Positions 3,542-64,000 of a DNA stretch of 64,000 nt are shown one piece after another (the stretch's first letter is position 1; the number at the start of each line of letters is the position of its first letter). The position numbers and the translations under genes were made by a program. The notes below the pieces were generated by a model. It was not told the DNA's origin and ran no database searches. It was given only the letters and a program-made list of their open reading frames with translations. Source of the DNA: Escherichia phage adrianh; sequence record MN850614.1. One strand, 5' to 3'.

Positions 3542-3871
3542 TTAATCTGCCAGCCTTAAGTTAAAATTAACACCAAATTTTTCGCATACTTCCAACATAA
3601 ACTCAAGAGAGACATTACCAGTGAGATTGATTATGTTGGATACACGAGCCTGAGAGATACCACAAATTTTAGCAACTTGCTCTTGAGAAAGACCTCTGGA
3701 TTTAATCTCTCTCTTAAAACGATGTGCAACGAAATCTCTCATTTCGTCTACATCCATTGGACAAATATAACTCTCCATTTCAGCTTCTCTGTCAGCCTCC
3801 CAATTATCTTGTGGGGCATAAGGGTCAAAAGCTTCATTCATCTTTCTTCTTCCGTTTGCGTGAAGTATCAA
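3542..3871 (-). CDS. HTH DNA-binding protein (XRE/Cro-like)
   Basis: 109 aa; C-terminal helix-turn-helix-like segment LSQEQVAKICGISQARVSNI. Confidence 0.5.
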   Translation of the reverse strand: MILHANGRRKMNEAFDPYAPQDNWEADREAEMESYICPMDVDEMRDFVAHRFKREIKSRGLSQEQVAKICGISQARVSNIINLTGNVSLEFMLEVCEKFGVNFNLRLAD

Positions 3872-12293: not shown

Positions 12294-12323
12294 ACATTAC
12301 TGCAAAAAATTATAAAAAGCAAG

Positions 12324-12352
12324 TTGACAATGTACTTGACAAGGTGTTAATC
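12324..12352 (+). promoter_or_regulatory. Sigma70-like promoter in divergent intergenic region
   Basis: TTGACA, 17-nt spacer, TTAATC; contains the ACTTGACAAGGTG motif also present near 28085 and 58190. Confidence 0.45.
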
Positions 12353-12520
12353 TTTGCGAAGTGGGTTTTTACTTAAAAGGTTACTTAACAGTTTAACTAT
12401 ACAGATACTTTAAAACTCTTAAAAGATTATTTAATAGCTTTTAAAAAGCTTTAAAGTATAACGTATAGAATACGTTAAGATAAAAGATTAAAACTTAATA
12501 GTTACTTAAAAGAGGCTTAC

Positions 12521-14759: not shown

Positions 14760-16737
14760 AGGTCGTAAATTGAAAGAGGCTGGTCAGTTTGTTGGTCATT
14801 GTGCATGTCCACGTTGTGGTTCATCAGATGCTGGTTCAATCTATCATCATGACGATGATTCTTATTCGATGACTTGCTTTAGTTGTAAGAAAGGTTTCCC
14901 AGAGTGGGATTTTGATAAAGGACAAATCGTGAGCACTTATTCTACTGGTTCAGACAATAAAAACCGTACTTTCCGTGGAATGGATTTAGACGATGTAAAA
15001 GAAAACCTAGAAGCAATGGACTTGAAAGACAGGAAGATTCCTGCAAAAGTTCTTGAGCGTTTGGGTATTAAGGTTGACATTGACAGTGATGGTGAAATTG
15101 ACGCACATTTCTACCCAACTTACAAACGTAATGAAGATGGTAAGCTAGAACATGTTGGCTACCGTGTTCGTCACCGTTACCCAGAAGACCATCCAAAAGA
15201 GCACCTACGTGGTAAGCTAAAAGACTTTTCTGGTGGTGTTGGAGACATTAAAGGTGAACTGGCAATGTTTGGTTCATGGATTGCTCCAGAAGGTGGTAAC
15301 CGTCTATTCATCTGGGAAGGTGAGATGGAATGTGCGACAGCAATCTACATGACCTCTTTGGCGATTAAAGATAAGTCTCGTCGTAAGAATTACTGTCACG
15401 TATCTGTCCCATCAGGTGCAAACATTAAGTCTATCAAAGACAACTATCAGTACATCACATCATTTGATGAGATTTACTTGTGCTTTGATAACGATGAAGC
15501 AGGTGCTAAAGCTACCAAAGAGGCTGCTGGCATTCTCCCTATCGAGAAGGTTCGTTTATTCCAGTATCCAGAAGGTGTAAAAGACCTTAACGAATGGTGG
15601 ACAAAGTTCTATAAAGAGAAAGATACAGTTCTGGAAGGATTTAAGCAGCGTATCTACAATGCACCTCGTTACTGTCCTGCTGGTATCAAGAACTTCGCAG
15701 ATGGTTTTGAGGCAATGAAGAATCGTGGTCAGATTCCATTGATTCCTTTCCCAGAATCATTCGGAGATTTGAACAGACTGACTTATGGTGGTTATGGACT
15801 AGGTGAGATTACAACTCTGGCAGCACCATCTTCAGTGGGTAAATCAGCATACACTCGTGAAATGATTTACACAGCTTGGAAAGAAACCGATTACAATATT
15901 GGTGTAATTCCTGTAGAAGATACCTATGAAGAGTTGATGGAGATGCTCTGTGCAATCCACCTGAGCAAGCAGATTTCTGAGATTCCTTATGACGAACGTG
16001 ATTGGGATGAATTGAAGGGAGCGCACGCAGAACTATCTAAAGGTCGTCGTATCCACATCGTAGACCATCAAGGGGCAATTGACCAAGATAACTTACTGGA
16101 GTTTGTTGACTATCTTGTTAATAGCTTAGACTGTAAGATTATTATTCTTGACCCTATTACGTTGGCTCTGTCACGTTCAGATACGGATGAAGAGGAAGTT
16201 TTGTCTGAGCTATTGCGTCGTTGCAAACGCTACCAGTATGCACAATTGAACGTCTGTCACGTTCGTAAGAGTGCAGGTGGTCAGAAGGCTAACTCTGAAG
16301 GTGGGGATATCTCTGAAGAGGATATTAAAGGCTCTGGTGCGTATTTCCAGATTTCTATGAACAACATTCTGTTAATGCGTAACAAGGTTGACCCAGACCC
16401 TGTTAAGAAAAACTTGACAAAAATCAAGCTAACTAAATGTCGTCGTCACGGTAAGTCAACGGGTATTGCTGGTCATACTTGGTACAATCCAGATACAGGA
16501 CGCCTCATCAAAGCATCTGGTTGCGGAGTTGACATTGATGGTGCAGCAGAAAATATTCGCCAACAGTTTGGTATTGGTGAAGCTGAAGACCATTACGATG
16601 ACTCTTTGCCACATTATGAGGATGAAGTGTTTGACCGTGAGACTGGTGAAGTCTATACTGAAGAGCAGCGCCAAAGCTCAACGATTCCACCTGTATTAAG
16701 TGAGGATGCAGATGACTGCCCATTCGAAACTGAGTGA
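14746..16737 (+). CDS. Primase-helicase (zinc finger, TOPRIM, DnaB-like helicase)
   Basis: 663 aa; N-terminal zinc ribbon CPRCGSSDAG ... CFSCKKGF; Walker A GKS in the C-terminal half. Confidence 0.8.
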   Translation: MLMSKGRKLKEAGQFVGHCACPRCGSSDAGSIYHHDDDSYSMTCFSCKKGFPEWDFDKGQIVSTYSTGSDNKNRTFRGMDLDDVKENLEAMDLKDRKIPAKVLERLGIKVDIDSDGEIDAHFYPTYKRNEDGKLEHVGYRVRHRYPEDHPKEHLRGKLKDFSGGVGDIKGELAMFGSWIAPEGGNRLFIWEGEMECATAIYMTSLAIKDKSRRKNYCHVSVPSGANIKSIKDNYQYITSFDEIYLCFDNDEAGAKATKEAAGILPIEKVRLFQYPEGVKDLNEWWTKFYKEKDTVLEGFKQRIYNAPRYCPAGIKNFADGFEAMKNRGQIPLIPFPESFGDLNRLTYGGYGLGEITTLAAPSSVGKSAYTREMIYTAWKETDYNIGVIPVEDTYEELMEMLCAIHLSKQISEIPYDERDWDELKGAHAELSKGRRIHIVDHQGAIDQDNLLEFVDYLVNSLDCKIIILDPITLALSRSDTDEEEVLSELLRRCKRYQYAQLNVCHVRKSAGGQKANSEGGDISEEDIKGSGAYFQISMNNILLMRNKVDPDPVKKNLTKIKLTKCRRHGKSTGIAGHTWYNPDTGRLIKASGCGVDIDGAAENIRQQFGIGEAEDHYDDSLPHYEDEVFDRETGEVYTEEQRQSSTIPPVLSEDADDCPFETE

Positions 16738-16993
16738 TAGTTATAAAAGAGAGGGGTTCACACCCTTCTTTGAAGAAAAAAGTTTAAATAAATTTCAGGA
16801 AGAGTGTTTGACAAAGATTGATAGATTCTATAGAATGCTCCTCATGAAATGCGATGGAGAGGTTGAGATAAAAGAAGATTTTCACCAGAGCATGATTACA
16901 GTCATCATTGCGCTGCCTCAGCATAATATTAGTTGGCTGTTTATAATTAAAGAAAATGTGTTTGAATATCAAGTATATCGGAGAATATCATGA
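16712..16993 (+). CDS. Hypothetical protein
   Basis: ORF overlapping the helicase 3' end; ATG at 16712 has GAGGA upstream; weak. Confidence 0.3.
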   Translation: MTAHSKLSDSYKREGFTPFFEEKSLNKFQEECLTKIDRFYRMLLMKCDGEVEIKEDFHQSMITVIIALPQHNISWLFIIKENVFEYQVYRRIS

Positions 16994-17139
16994 AACACTC
17001 TAAAGCATTTGAAAAAGTTTTTGGGGATTCCTTAAAAGCCACTGCTGGAAAACCAGCAAAATACTATGAAGAAAAACGTGTAAGAACTGGAAAAACTGCA
17101 CGTAAAGCAGCTTCTAAAGATAAGCACAACTTCCAGTAA
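16990..17139 (+). CDS. Small basic protein (49 aa), not in the ORF track
   Basis: ATG at 16990 with GGAG upstream; 49 Lys-rich codons; below the 60-aa cutoff. Confidence 0.3.
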   Translation: MKHSKAFEKVFGDSLKATAGKPAKYYEEKRVRTGKTARKAASKDKHNFQ

Positions 17140-17211
17140 TTAGTATTTGACAATAGAGTATCAACAAATTAGAATTGGTACTCTTCATAAATTGAGATAG
17201 AGGTCTAAATA

Positions 17212-18069
17212 ATGTCTAAAGTTGTTAAAATGAAAGCTCCGGTAGAGAAGTACAACGGTACTGAACGTCAAACTCTGCGTTACCTGCTGAAAGATGTCTG
17301 GTTTTATTACCTGAACACTTCACCACGTCCGGGAAAAGGTAAGTCTATTGATAAAAAATTCCCAGGAAAAGATTGTAACTACAGCGTATCAATTCTGGCA
17401 GAAGACGGTAACAAGCTCTTTAAAGAGTTTACTAAGTCTAAGAAAAATCCAGAAGGCTGGGATAAAGTTACTACTGAAGCAGTTGACGCAGATGACTTTG
17501 AAGAGAAGTTTGGTTGTAAGCCACCTTTTGAAGCAGACACTTACTACATCTTGAAAGTAAGTCGTGCAGCAGCTTATAAAGATGGTGCTGTATGGACAGC
17601 TAAACAGTCATTCCCTGTAATGCTGATTGAAGAAGTAAATGGTAAGCGTGTAGCTGTTAAGCAGCCGATGAAGAAAATCAAAGCTCAAGCATCTGATAAA
17701 CATGAAGATGACAAGAACTATGATGTAATTCATCCAGATATCGCAGTTGGTAATGGTTCTTTTGGTAGTGTGATTCTTTCTACTCACTTCTACACTTTTG
17801 AGAACAATGTTCTGACAAAACCTATTCAGGAACAGTTTATCATTGATACTCTTGTACCTTACACTGGTGGTAACGGTGCTAATGGTGAACCTGAACTTGA
17901 TGAAGATGAACTGGCTATGCTTGGTCTTGATGGTGTTGAAGATAACGGTGAAATCACTGAAGAAGACGCAACAGACCATAAACCTTCGAATGCTTCTGAT
18001 GATGGTGATGATGAAGATTTGCCAGACCCAGATGACGAAGAAGATGAAGACTTCGATACAGAAGATTAA
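17212..18069 (+). CDS. Putative ssDNA-binding protein with acidic C-terminal tail
   Basis: 285 aa; C-terminus is a long Asp/Glu run ending DEDFDTED, as in phage SSBs; position between helicase and nuclease. Confidence 0.4.
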   Translation: MSKVVKMKAPVEKYNGTERQTLRYLLKDVWFYYLNTSPRPGKGKSIDKKFPGKDCNYSVSILAEDGNKLFKEFTKSKKNPEGWDKVTTEAVDADDFEEKFGCKPPFEADTYYILKVSRAAAYKDGAVWTAKQSFPVMLIEEVNGKRVAVKQPMKKIKAQASDKHEDDKNYDVIHPDIAVGNGSFGSVILSTHFYTFENNVLTKPIQEQFIIDTLVPYTGGNGANGEPELDEDELAMLGLDGVEDNGEITEEDATDHKPSNASDDGDDEDLPDPDDEEDEDFDTED

Positions 18070-38258: not shown

Positions 38259-38274
38259 TAAGTAATTTCTTAAA

Positions 38275-38298
38275 AGGCTGCTTCGGCGGCCTTTTTTA
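38275..38298 (+). terminator. Rho-independent terminator
   Basis: GGCTGC-TTCG-GCGGCC hairpin followed by TTTTTT. Confidence 0.65.
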
Positions 38299-38358
38299 TT
38301 TGTATTTTGTGCAGAGTGCTGTATAATTGTTGTCACGATAAACTAAACAGGAGAACCA

Positions 38359-41212: not shown

Positions 41213-41414
41213 AAAGACACGGAAAATTATCCGGTCAGCAGTATTTATTGGAAGAAATGAAGTGATTCCTTTTACAGCAAATGATGTGATAGTCTACAGG
41301 AAAAAATTAGCATTCAGTTATTGCTTACGTGGCTTTATCTCCCAGCCATTAGAAGATTTTAAAAATCGTTGTGGTAAAGGCATCATCATTCAAGAGGCAA
41401 TTATTCATGGCTGA
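41187..41414 (+). CDS. Hypothetical protein
   Basis: 75 aa. Confidence 0.35.
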   Translation: MKVILARDKKTRKIIRSAVFIGRNEVIPFTANDVIVYRKKLAFSYCLRGFISQPLEDFKNRCGKGIIIQEAIIHG

Positions 41415-41607
41415 CTTCTGCAAAGACTGTGCTATCGAGATGTTTGGACGTGATACAGGTGATTTAAAAGGTCTTATCACTGAAGATGACTTTAAAGCTG
41501 GCTATGCAATGCCAGTAATCTGTGAAGGTTGTGGATGTATCTGGGTAGACCACGAAGGACAGCGTGTAAAACCTTCAGAAGATAAAGAATCTTGGGAGAG
41601 ATGCTAA
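41371..41607 (+). CDS. Hypothetical small cysteine-rich protein
   Basis: 78 aa; CKDC ... CEGCGC. Confidence 0.35.
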   Translation: MVKASSFKRQLFMADFCKDCAIEMFGRDTGDLKGLITEDDFKAGYAMPVICEGCGCIWVDHEGQRVKPSEDKESWERC

Positions 41608-42393
41608 ATGGGTATTGTAAAAATCATCAATGGTGATATCTTTGCAGCATTTGATAAAGGTAAGTTTGATGTCATCGGTCACGGTTGCAACTGTATGAAC
41701 TTAATGGGCGCAGGTATCGCTGACAAGATTTCCAAACTTTACCCAAAAGCATATGAGACCGACACAGAAGTTTATATGTATGCAGGTGGTATAGGACACA
41801 AACCCTGTGAAAATTTACTGGGTAATTTCTCTGTAGCACGTTTAAAACAAGGTCGTATAGCTAACCTTTACACTCAGCTTAAGACTGGTAAAGATGCCCG
41901 ATACAGTGCTTTAGAGTCATCTTTGAAGCAGCTTAACAGATACTGTGAAGTCAATCAGTTGAAGAAAGTAGGGTTACCTATGATTGGTGCAGGTATCGGT
42001 GGGCTAGACCCTCAAGCCGTCACAGTTATCATTAATCAGGTGATGAAGAGTGTAGATGTGTATCTATATGTCTATGAAGGAGAGATGTACCACAAGTTAT
42101 GCTCAGGTTGGAAGAACTACTGTGAACCAGAATACTTTGCAGGTGTAGCAGTGTTCACGGATAATGCAGTTACCCTCTTCAGACGAAGAAAGGGTAAGAT
42201 ACATCAAAGTAACCCTCCGGTTGAAAAGATGTCTCTAAGTAACGCTCTAGTTACCCACCTGTCGAAGAGCAATCACAGAATTGCAGTAACATTTGGCAGT
42301 GATGCAGATGCTTATATCTATGCAAGAACTGATGAGGATATCGAGTTAATCTTCTCTTCACCAGAGCTTACCTTCTTAGACGCAAAGAACTAA
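41608..42393 (+). CDS. Macro-domain protein (ADP-ribose binding/processing)
   Basis: 261 aa; N-terminal macro-domain-like segment INGDIF ... GHGCNCMNLMGAGIA. Confidence 0.55.
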   Translation: MGIVKIINGDIFAAFDKGKFDVIGHGCNCMNLMGAGIADKISKLYPKAYETDTEVYMYAGGIGHKPCENLLGNFSVARLKQGRIANLYTQLKTGKDARYSALESSLKQLNRYCEVNQLKKVGLPMIGAGIGGLDPQAVTVIINQVMKSVDVYLYVYEGEMYHKLCSGWKNYCEPEYFAGVAVFTDNAVTLFRRRKGKIHQSNPPVEKMSLSNALVTHLSKSNHRIAVTFGSDADAYIYARTDEDIELIFSSPELTFLDAKN

Positions 42394-42461
42394 GAAACTT
42401 CGTAGTATATTCACAATAGACTAAGCCTTTCTTATCTGGTAAATTTTTCAGGTAAGGAGGG

Positions 42462-42650
42462 TTTTTTCATTTCAGATTTGTGCAGGTAGAGTTCTGTAGA
42501 GAAATCTATAGAGAAAATTTTGAACTCCAAAGAGAAAATTCATTTTCAAACTGTGCAGGTAATCTCCAAAGGGTTTTTTTCATTTTCAAAACGTGCAGAG
42601 AAAAATCAGGTCGGGCAAGAAAAATCATTTTAGAATTGTGCAGGTAGGTG
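42462..42650 (+). repeat. Four direct repeats, consensus TCATTTYMRA-N-TGTGCAGGTA
   Basis: Copies at about 42462, 42536, 42574 and 42620 in an ORF-free stretch after the macro-domain gene. Confidence 0.6.
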
Positions 42651-42902
42651 GGTACATGTGGGGATGTCGCCATTTCTCACAAGGCTACCACATCTAAAAA
42701 TAAAAGTCAACAGAAAAATTTGTAGCGGATTGAAAAATAATTCTTGATTGTAGTTCTGTTTTGTGGTAGTCGCGCGCACCCGTTTCATTACAATCTTTGC
42801 AAAAAATATTTTTAAAATTCCTATTGACTCTTTGAGTATGGTTATCTAATATTTGCATCAGACGGGCAATCAAGCCCACTTCCTAAACTGGAGAATCTAA
42901 AA

Positions 42903-43109
42903 ATGCTTTACAGTCGCGAATTGATGGTTACAACTAACATTAACACAAAGGCAAAACGTTTTTACATGCAAATCTGTGGCGTATGGTCTAGAATATCAGA
43001 GACTGACTATTGCAACTATGTAGAAACGGCTATAAACTCTAATTGCTACCTTACAAGAAATACAAGAAAGTACATAAGACAGACAGCAATTTATTACTAC
43101 GATAAATAA
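42903..43109 (+). CDS. Hypothetical small protein
   Basis: 68 aa ORF with AGGAGAATC... GGAGAA-like RBS upstream; low support. Confidence 0.3.
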   Translation: MLYSRELMVTTNINTKAKRFYMQICGVWSRISETDYCNYVETAINSNCYLTRNTRKYIRQTAIYYYDK

Positions 43110-43197
43110 AGTACTTTACAAGGGGCTTATAGTTCGATAAAGTAAGCCCCAGATAAAGAGCTTTACCAAATTAACCCTTAAACTAGGAGATTCAAAA
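43109..43197 (+). promoter_or_regulatory. Type A cassette, copy 1 (promoter-like, stem-loop, RBS)
   Basis: AAGTACTTTACAAGGGGCTTATAGTTCGATAAAGTAAGCCCCAGATAAAGAGCTTTACC ... GGAGA ... ATG; TTTACA-N17-TAAAGT with GGGGCTTA/TAAGCCCC stem. Confidence 0.55.
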
Positions 43198-43581
43198 ATG
43201 GCATATCGTGCACCGAAATTCATCAACAAAGACAACTTTCGCAAAGTACTGGAGAAGTCACTTGATGAGAATTTTAAAGGCAACATTATTGTTGTTCACG
43301 CATTCAATTTTAAGTATGATGTAAACGGGAATAGAATCAACCATTACACGGCAACCATGTTAGACGGTACACTATCAAGTGAAAAAGCCGTACTGAATGC
43401 ACTAGCAGGACGCGGAAAAGTATTAGTAAGATGTGATAAGCGACGTTATCAGGGTGGCGCATATGGTTATGATGATGCTGTTTATCATCTTGAAAATATG
43501 GGCTATAAAGTAGAAAAAGCTGGAGTATCGCAAATCATCGGGAGCGATGGTTATGTAACAATCTTCAAAATTAACGAATAA
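43198..43581 (+). CDS. Hypothetical protein (small-gene array 1)
   Basis: 127 aa; starts Met-Ala directly after cassette A. Confidence 0.55.
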   Translation: MAYRAPKFINKDNFRKVLEKSLDENFKGNIIVVHAFNFKYDVNGNRINHYTATMLDGTLSSEKAVLNALAGRGKVLVRCDKRRYQGGAYGYDDAVYHLENMGYKVEKAGVSQIIGSDGYVTIFKINE

Positions 43582-47789: not shown

Positions 47790-47818
47790 TTGACAACGCC
47801 CCTTGACATTGGTAGATT
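47790..47818 (+). promoter_or_regulatory. Sigma70-like promoter
   Basis: TTGACA, 17-nt spacer, TAGATT. Confidence 0.45.
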
Positions 47819-49219: not shown

Positions 49220-50780
49220 TCTATCCAATCCTCATACAACCCCTTTCCCTTTCCTTTCCAGAATCTTATCAGACCTTAAAAAGCAATAACTTTACAGCCT
49301 TTTACTAAGTCAATTAATTGGCCTTATTAATAAGCCCTTAAACATAAGCCAATAACCCCAGAAAGGGGGCAACCCATTTAAACGCCATATAAAGCCCTAT
49401 AACGGCCTTTTTAACCTAACTTAAGGGATTGCATTACCTCACCCTTAAAAGCCCTTTATAAAGCTTCACAGAGCCTTAAAAGAATCTTATAAGGGTGTAA
49501 GCTTTATTATCTCGTTAGCTATCTTGTGAACTACTAAACAACCCCCTTGATAGTAACTGAAAAGTATGTTATAGGGGCTTTAAAGTTACTTTGAAGTATC
49601 TTAAGAGTTACGTAAATGCTAGCCCCCTTAACATTCTCTTAACAATTTCTTAACAATCCCTACATAGTTATGCTTTTAAGGCACTTGTTAGCAACTTGTT
49701 AGCCCCTTGTTAAATCTCTGTTAAGACCACGTAAAAGCCTTGTAAGAGTCTTTGACATAGCCTTTAAAGCTTCTGTAAAGCCTTATAAAGAGGTGTCTGT
49801 ACAGTTGGGGTGTAACTACTAGTGAGAGACTTAAAAGAGCTTACAAGGAGCTATAGAGAGCTTTTAAGAGGTATGTTTAAGGAATCACTAAGAAAGGAAA
49901 GGGAACGATAAGAAAAGAGTAGTGACCATGTTAATAGCTTGTTAAAAAGATTAAACACTTGTTAGAAACTTGTTAATTATCTTAACAAAATAACTCTTTA
50001 AAATTAACTTGTTAGCTCTTGTTAGTCATCTGTTAAGCCTCTGTAAAGACTATTCAGCACTTGTTAATTGGTATTGTTACCAATCCCTAGAAAACTGTTA
50101 AGCCCTTGTCAGTTCTGTTAAGAAACTGTTAAGACCTTTGAAGAGTTGTTAAGAAGATGTGAGAACTGTTAAGAGATTGTTAAGGATATTTTAAAATTTT
50201 GCAAAGGGGATGTTACAGGGATGTTAAGGGCTACCAAGCAGATATACATCCTCTACAGATATTTTTCAGTTCCTTCAAAGACCCTAAAAAAAAAATGACT
50301 TGACAGTCTTATTTTATAAAAATTTTAAAATTCTGAATAATTACCTAGACAGTCTTTTAAAAATACAGGTAGAAACAGGCTTATAAGATACCTTGTTAGT
50401 ACCGTGTTAGACCTTGTGAGATAAGGTCTGTGAAGATATTCCTGTTAAGTTTGTTAAAACAGCCTATATAGAGGCTTAGTAATACCTAGTGAACACCTAT
50501 AGAGGGTAACATAGCTAACCTAGAGATTAAGAGGTGTATAGGAGCTTCTAAGAGTGTGTAGAGAGATGGTTAAGGTGATTGTATAGGTTGTTAAGAAGGC
50601 TTGTTAGAAGAGTGTTTAGAAGGCTTGTTAGAGGGCTAGTTAGAAGGGTTATACAGAGGGGCTATTAAGACCACTAGATAGTTACTAAGATACTATATAG
50701 TACTATATAACTATATATAGAGAGTAAGATTAAGAAGGTTGTTAAGAAGGGTAGATATTTTATTCACATATGATGGTGAC
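49220..50780. repeat. ORF-free region dense in short direct repeats (iteron-like)
   Basis: No ORF of 60 aa or more on either strand over about 1.6 kb; 49220-49520 rich in AGCC(C/T)TTWWAA-type motifs; 49520-50700 carries more than 25 copies of YTGTTARG; AT-rich ACTATATA repeats at about 50690-50725. Confidence 0.6.
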
Positions 50781-50854
50781 CCAGAGGTTGGGACAACCGA
50801 TAAAATTTTATAAAAATTAAAAAGCCCCCCAATTAAGGAGGCTCTTAAGATATT

Positions 50855-63996: not shown

Positions 63997-64000
63997 ATGC

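Follow-up and report, generated by a model that had tools for sequence, protein, structure and literature searches.

Four direct repeats lie close together in a non-coding stretch of the genome of Escherichia phage adrianh, and the question raised by this locus is which function such an array serves. A preliminary description had offered three roles for tandem sites of this kind: binding of a multimeric regulator, packaging, and replication. Here, we address the question in a window of 64,000 nt, the whole stretch of sequence record MN850614.1 that was analysed; all coordinates are positions in this window. The phage is a Felixounavirus, i.e., a Felix O1-like myovirus. In blastn searches, the region 42300-43000 matched 288 phage records with a top identity of 96%, nearly all of them Felix O1-like myoviruses (Ounavirinae: Felixounavirus, Mooglevirus, and Kolesnikvirus).

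The repeats are located in a gap of 510 bp, among the largest non-coding gaps of the phage, which is bordered by a macro-domain gene ('phosphatase', T4 Tk.4-like; 41608-42393) on the left and by an ORF of 68 aa (42903-43109) on the right. Mechanical ORFs in the gap reach only 55 aa, and the arrays of relatives differ from one another by indels of 1-2 nt, so that no reading frame can be conserved. The macro-domain gene ends in an intrinsic terminator on the plus strand (42423-42464), which the terminator scan reports with a 17-pair stem and a T-run and which is an annotated terminator in phage Barry. The T-run also serves as the A/T tract of the first repeat copy. On the far side of the array, the promoter scan found a UP-element-like sequence, AAAAAATATTTTTAAAA, together with a sigma-70 promoter, TTGACT-17-TAATAT, on the plus strand (42800-42852, hexamers at 42824-42852). 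This promoter is kept in relatives and heads the small-gene cluster; a ribosome-binding site and the ATG at 42903 end the gap downstream of it. It opens a series of strong promoters of early type, the array lies upstream of it, and the design of a UP element with TTGACA is found again at 47790, 58723, 60227, and 60318. With the four sites 180-390 bp from the nearest promoter, the array is about 180 bp upstream of the promoter of the small-gene cluster and therefore upstream of the transcribed leader, not inside it. The first assignment to a non-coding leader of the small-gene array thus holds for the non-coding nature of the DNA and for its position upstream of the cluster, but not for the leader itself.

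Further modules were seen around the small early genes. Ahead of many of these genes, the translation start has a conserved module, CCT(T)AAACT(A)GGAGAwTCwAAAATG (42884-42905, 43179-43200, and others), which is annotated in Mordin as 14-bp repeat_regions. Promoter-plus-hairpin modules, e.g., 43107-43165, correspond to the 57-bp repeats described in the Felix O1 paper. Both kinds of module bear a likeness to the early promoter/stem-loop cassettes of T4 type, and the gene after rIIB was likened by the Mordin annotators to T4 RegB, a cutter of GGAG.

The four repeats share the core TTCATTTTCAAnnTGTGCAGGT, which starts at 42466, 42539, 42579, and 42624 in one and the same orientation, with start-to-start distances of 73, 40, and 45 bp; the repeat search places them in a single family of four copies. 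All are on the plus strand and match an invariant pattern, WWWTYATTT-N7-GTGCAK. Copy 1, TTTTCATTTCAGATTTGTGCAGGT (42464-42487), scores 29.2 bits against a weight matrix made from 12 copies of three genera, copy 2, AATTCATTTTCAAACTGTGCAGGT (42537-42560), 31.2 bits, copy 3, TTTTCATTTTCAAAACGTGCAGAG (42577-42600), 29.1 bits, and copy 4, AAATCATTTTAGAATTGTGCAGGT (42622-42645), 28.1 bits. The site is asymmetric and extends over approximately 22-28 bp: it is made up of a G with an A/T tract, then TCATTT, a stretch of seven bases under loose constraint, and GTGCA(G/T), with the motif seen in the variants GTGCAGGT and GTGCATAG. The run GGGTTTTTT(T) precedes copies 1 and 3, the first such run being the T-tail of the terminator at 42423-42464. 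These data bear out the preliminary description as far as the sequences are concerned: all four quoted repeats of about 22 nt were found in place, their distances agree with the 40-75 bp given, and two copies carry the preceding run.

Chance is a poor explanation for the array. The four sites reach 28-31 bits, while the next best position of the 64-kb window reaches 15.7 bits and the maximum in 200 random first-order Markov sequences of 64 kb is 20.6 bits. Allowing up to three mismatches, the consensus has 3 matches against 0.00 expected. Of the invariant pattern, the window contains 5 instances, four of them in the array, where 0.01 would be expected. In the complete LinBro genome of 85.9 kb, every position outside the array stays below 16 bits. 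A motif search across the whole genome and related phages had been proposed as a check, and its outcome is clear: the array is unique in the window and kept in relatives.

The DNA between the copies is less uniform. Copies 1 and 2 are separated by a long spacer with two tandem 12-nt units, TCTrTAGAGAAA (42493-42516, plus strand), which were found by Tandem Repeats Finder and as a repeat family in the window and are kin to the element CTCCAAAGAGAAAA. Ahead of copy 2 lies the element ACTCCAAAGAG (42524-42534, plus strand), a second copy of which, TCTCCAAAGGG, precedes copy 3 (42563-42573); in Mooglevirus, the element is found ahead of copies 2, 3, and 4. The spacer between copies 3 and 4 holds GGTCGGGCAAG. 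Copy 4 is followed by a variable tract without strand assignment (42646-42699), which occurs in the alignment as two unrelated alleles, a G-containing one in the window and a C/T-rich one of about 45 nt, CCCCTCTCCCCCTCTTACTCCCCC, in many relatives, Mooglevirus, and Kolesnikvirus. The latter, a C-rich polypyrimidine tract, would make the opposite strand G4-capable. The C-rich tract also appears to break assemblies, since KhF1, TH10, and four IMG/VR contigs end there. Next comes a conserved block, AAAAGTCAAcAGAAAAATTTGTAGCGGATTGAAAAATAATTCTTGATT (42700-42750, likewise without strand assignment), with an identity of 0.91 and a TTGACT on the minus strand.

Conservation was assessed in individual phages and in 27 IMG/VR loci of Ounavirinae type for which the macro-domain gene served as the anchor. 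Four copies were found in 24 of the 27 loci, at distances of 73/39/45 or 75-77/39-41/45; each of the remaining three either has a copy that scores too low for the threshold or is cut off within the array by the end of the contig. The full set of four is also seen in Mooglevirus Mordin (75/41/45) and, with the core TCATTTTCAATTTGTGCATAG and a tighter spacing (37/37/39), in Kolesnikvirus phiEa21-4. Si3-like phages have three copies, and in the Erwinia phages blastn aligns nothing but copies 2 to 4 and the DNA between them. The most distant case is a divergent metagenomic lineage of 85-88 kb, in which five to six copies of TTCATTTTAAAAACGTGCATAG stand behind a shorter macro-domain gene. Its syntenic genes show only 40-58% amino-acid similarity, and apart from the array it has no blastn match in the phage collection. 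This lineage consists of IMGVR_UViG_3300045988_063805 (L051/L166) and L167, shows Ounavirinae-like synteny, and carries a Dam-type methylase beside the short macro-domain gene of 148 aa. In all four lineages, a strong promoter of early type follows the array at a distance of about 175-220 bp, though the intervening DNA differs. Beyond these phages, a metagenome pattern scan returned true arrays on Felix-like contigs only, and a two-copy pattern gave no Enterobacterales locus and no true array in 185,579 species genomes.

Within an alignment of 24 sequences, the cores reach a mean pairwise identity of 0.90-0.91 (0.91 for copies 1 and 4, 0.90 for copies 2 and 3) and the element ACTCCAAAGAG reaches 0.97. 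Values are lower for spacers 1 and 3 (0.71-0.77), for the macro-domain gene at its 3' end (0.73), and for the tract after copy 4 (0.59); spacer 2, which holds TCTCCAAAGGG, is at 0.90. The cores are conserved above the spacers and are therefore under purifying selection. We regard the array as the clearest conserved non-coding element of the Felix O1-like group.

The motif also occurs 4.2-4.7 kb upstream of the array in Felixounavirus and Mooglevirus. The one pattern match outside the gap is a single fifth copy, TTTTTATTTGTATTTTGTGCAG, on the plus strand (38293-38314). It comes directly after the rIIB terminator (38272-38295), in the T-run of which it starts, and overlaps the -35 element and the spacer of a promoter, covering about -38 to -19 ahead of a perfect TATAAT (38322-38327). 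The -35 of this promoter in Felixounavirus is below the 4-of-6 threshold of the scan (3 of 6 by our own reading), and that of the matching promoter in Mooglevirus is TTGAAA. The operon under the control of this promoter starts with the gene for an SLT-like secreted protein, continues with those for a polynucleotide kinase (PNK), the spanins, and several small proteins, and extends as far as the macro-domain gene; it ends at the terminator that touches the array. The motif thus brackets the operon, with one copy at its promoter and four behind its terminator. In the complete genomes of LinBro and Mordin, members of different genera, exactly 1+4 pattern matches occur, all on one strand. The fifth site in the window is the 15.7-bit position, a score that is reached by 18% of random sequences and is by itself not significant; in Moogle-like relatives the site scores 21.9-23.6 bits. 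What speaks for it as a predicted site is the result with the invariant pattern, together with its position and these Moogle-like scores. Upstream of the SLT-like gene of Kolesnikvirus and of the divergent lineage it is absent, which makes the promoter link specific to one clade (Felixounavirus and Mooglevirus). A putative late-promoter motif, TGTATAAT, was also considered and dropped, as it showed no repetition elsewhere.

We tentatively favor the interpretation that the four repeats are a cluster of putative sites, located where two operons meet, to which a sequence-specific protein would bind and thereby control or insulate transcription. The sites are conserved above their surroundings and act as DNA, and the one at 38293-38314 overlaps a promoter element. 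Since this further site covers the -35 of the promoter of the very operon that ends at the array, transcription control is the most likely job. The A/T tract speaks for a site that is read as DNA: the three bases before the core are A/T in 100% of 102 distinct copies, as an A-run or a T-run (47% A versus 53% T). Such a swap suits the recognition of groove shape in duplex DNA, not an RNA motif. The regulator among the three roles first offered has gained from the fifth site, with the binding as such being predicted, and the idea of protein sites behind it is favored by the conservation of the cores across genera, by the A/T tract on either strand, and by the lack of an RNA signal. Some facts go against it. 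The distance of 180-390 bp to the nearest promoter is far for simple repression or activation, and spacings of 37-45 bp are not whole helical turns. The literature yielded nothing relevant on a Felixounavirus transcriptome.

The mechanism that we propose is as follows. One sequence-specific DNA-binding protein, probably encoded by the phage, would occupy all four sites, and the four sites in the same orientation (three to six in relatives) would build up a multi-protein complex between the terminator and the early promoter. At the promoter at 38.3 kb, the protein would act as a switch, either by occlusion or as a stand-in for the weak -35. The distal cluster of four sites would reinforce this switch by looping, buffer the level of free protein, or shield the early cluster against transcription that arrives from upstream.

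Candidates for the binding protein were sought in the window. The only recognisable HTH protein is of XRE type (3545-3841, minus strand); it is present in Felixounavirus and Mooglevirus and was rejected, as it is absent from Erwinia phages that bear the array. Furthermore, XRE dimers usually bind palindromes, whereas the sites observed here are asymmetric. A 78-aa protein (41371-41607), encoded just upstream of the macro-domain gene and also found in Mooglevirus, carries zinc-ribbon-like CxxC...CxxCxC motifs. It was rejected as well, being absent from Kolesnikvirus and the divergent lineage. No other protein of the operon has matches to a DNA-binding domain. A host factor that recognises single sites may also be the binder; the lack of an Enterobacterales match to the two-copy pattern in the 185,579 species genomes argues against the copying or titration of a host array.

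The array copies themselves do not look like promoters. Within 42460-42650, the promoter scan found no sigma-70 promoter on either strand, and direct reading of the sequence found in none of the four copies a -10 element at the distance that matches the 38.3-kb site. Tandem promoters of sigma-70, sigma-E-like, or MotA-like type were rejected on these grounds and because the spacing of the putative elements varies between 16 and 18 bp among lineages. The T4 MotA boxes and the pho boxes, activator sites that take the place of a -35 element, are similar in that the Felixounavirus site at 38293-38314 lies at the -35 position of a promoter whose -10 is perfect and whose -35 falls below the threshold of the scan. 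They differ in sequence and are spread over dozens of promoters, while the motif described here has two loci per genome and array copies that lack a -10. The looping clusters OL and OR of phage lambda also have operator sites at two loci that are kilobases apart, one of them over the -35 of a promoter. In lambda, however, the operators are palindromes of 17 bp at distances of 23-24 bp, and each of the two clusters lies on promoters; here, the sites are asymmetric and 37-75 bp apart, and the cluster of four overlaps no promoter. Finally, the 12 direct 43-bp repeats of the sopC centromere in the F plasmid are similar as tandem direct units of about 40 bp with one protein site each, a putative one in our case, but every sopC unit includes an inverted repeat and SopA/SopB are its partners, whereas the array belongs to a virulent phage without annotated partition genes.

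A doubtful alternative is that the array is a replication origin or an auxiliary of one. The repeats would then be iterons, and a phage initiator that has escaped recognition would bind them and either melt the DNA nearby or load the T7-type primase-helicase. The strong promoter would provide transcriptional activation. The general look of the array speaks for this: asymmetric direct repeats of about 22 bp in one orientation, 3-6 copies, and a single locus per genome, as in P1 incC/incA, pSC101, and the lambda ori, which have few copies of asymmetric 19-22-bp direct repeats at a unique locus. The iteron replicons P1 and pSC101 have autoregulatory sites at promoters, which the extra copy at 38.3 kb recalls, and in P1 two sets of sites likewise bracket a block of genes. 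The array is situated in one of the largest non-coding gaps and adjoins the A/T-rich promoter region or, in the divergent lineage, an A/T-rich stretch of TTAACA repeats of about 160 bp. The A/T stretch next to the promoter ranks at the 99.6th percentile of duplex instability in 60-bp windows but only at the 95th in windows of 100-200 bp.

Several observations stand against an origin at this place. The cumulative GC skew turns at about 12.5 and 50 kb, not at the array, and the least stable duplex is found at 12.3-12.5 kb and 50.3-50.7 kb. The replication genes are T7-like (PolA, Toprim+DnaB_C primase-helicase, exonuclease, and ligase), and the units are 37-75 bp apart instead of the approximately 22 bp typical of iterons. 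No DnaA boxes were found, and Pfam and PHROG searches of the flanking operons and the replication module gave no Rep/initiator or origin-binding domain, with many small proteins remaining without assignment. Of the replication signal proposed at first, the iteron-like look thus remains, which leaves the proposal weakly supported.

Two other regions deserve mention in this context. Region 12300-12520 lies between divergent promoters, with the DNA polymerase gene on the minus and the primase-helicase operon on the plus strand. It contains the least stable 100-200-bp duplex of the window at the minimum of the cumulative GC skew, a near-palindrome of 27 nt, and repeats of the CTTAAAAG type; as a candidate for an origin, it looks better than the array does. 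Region 49700-50850 belongs to a non-coding gap of 1.2-1.5 kb where gene blocks of the plus and minus strands converge. Here, short direct repeats, (C/T)TGTTA(A/G), accumulate to 27 plus-strand copies in 2 kb, compared to about one per kb elsewhere. The least stable DNA and the maximum of the GC skew fall at the place of this cluster, which is kept in Mordin (15880-17377); in the divergent lineage, a cluster of the reverse complement, TTAACA, directly adjoins the repeat array. This field could be an origin, a terminus, or another field of protein binding.

In an unlikely but more far-reaching scenario, the array, the single promoter site, and the putative protein would together form an undescribed control system of Felix O1-like phages that brackets the operon of 4.2-4.7 kb. 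Such a system might be a looped switch from early to later transcription, or a new iteron origin that serves a T7-type replisome without a phage RNA polymerase and is bound by an unrecognised family of initiators.

Somewhat less credible still is a role at the DNA level that has no part in promoter control, such as a roadblock or insulator behind the terminator, a pause of DNA entry, a linker for recombination during module exchange, or a decoy for a host protein. Some facts speak for such a role: the array lies exactly at the boundary of two transcription units and right behind a terminator. Mosaic breakpoints start just past copy 4, as indicated by the two alleles of the tract and by different first downstream genes, and the physical end that would bound the first-entering segment is about 21 kb away. 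On the other hand, a host-factor decoy predicts the motif in hosts, and the search of 185,579 species genomes with the two-copy pattern found no Enterobacterales locus; a recombination linker leaves the four ordered copies at fixed spacing unexplained.

It is very improbable that the repeats work as RNA, either as a transcribed decoy of units of about 37-45 nt, comparable to the type III antitoxin ToxI, or as a protein sponge. ToxI repeats are 36 nt long, and the tandem direct units of 37-45 nt resemble them in arrangement and length. Moreover, A-rich stretches, GAGAAAAUUC, resemble ToxN-type cleavage sites, and transcripts could arise from read-through of the terminator. On the other hand, the array has no upstream promoter and stands directly behind a strong terminator, whereas in type III antitoxin arrays the terminator follows the repeats. 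The units are not uniform, with A-runs and T-runs exchanged at one position. Folding was no better than that of shuffled sequence on either strand (z = -0.8 and -0.3), RNAalifold on nine sequences gave -13 kcal/mol with a covariation term of +0.24, and Rfam returned nothing relevant, ToxI included, even at E values up to 5. No toxin-like domain was found in the downstream genes, and no toxin gene is adjacent. No bacterial counterpart array was found with the two-copy pattern in the 185,579 species genomes. Because RNA structure, covariation, and Rfam matches are all lacking, we conclude that the array acts as DNA and not as RNA.

That the repeats are neutral remains of a tandem duplication is hardly tenable. 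The units do look like a duplicated module of a terminator tail and a site, but the cores are conserved well above the spacers, and the repeats persist where the surrounding DNA cannot be aligned.

A packaging (pac/terminase) signal or a physical genome end, as initially suggested, can practically be dismissed: GenBank records KhF1 and TH10 and several IMG/VR contigs do end in the intergenic region of the array, but these ends are assembly breaks (a terminal overlap of 74 nt in TH10, N-rich reads across the poly-C/G tract in KhF1), and the terminal repeats map about 21 kb away. The direct terminal repeats of UAB_Phi87 were mapped by Bal31 digestion and run-off sequencing (PMC4837284), and its terminal duplication, 542 bp in the record, aligns to 63580-64000 of the window and beyond. 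In another Felixounavirus, a terminal repeat of 581 bp was determined by PhageTerm (PMC8303462). The match to UAB_Phi87 at the right end of the window falls inside a tRNA gene cluster, which is an unusual location for a repeat of this kind.

The observations as such show real and conserved sites that have no equal elsewhere in the genome and act at the DNA level, one of them in overlap with a promoter; from these we infer that a protein binds them, which one it may be, and what the regulatory outcome would be. The array is best read as a new instance of an already known type of element, a cluster of protein sites. Our literature search found no paper on the motif, on these repeats, or on a replication origin of Felix O1. 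According to the Felix O1 genome paper, the temporal control of its genes and the passage of transcription through many terminators are not known (PMC3185647). Felix O1-type phages are classic typing and biocontrol phages of Salmonella and E. coli. For this group, the array supplies a defined 22-bp bait for its putative binding protein, and it marks a small region to be left intact, or to be exploited, in phage engineering.
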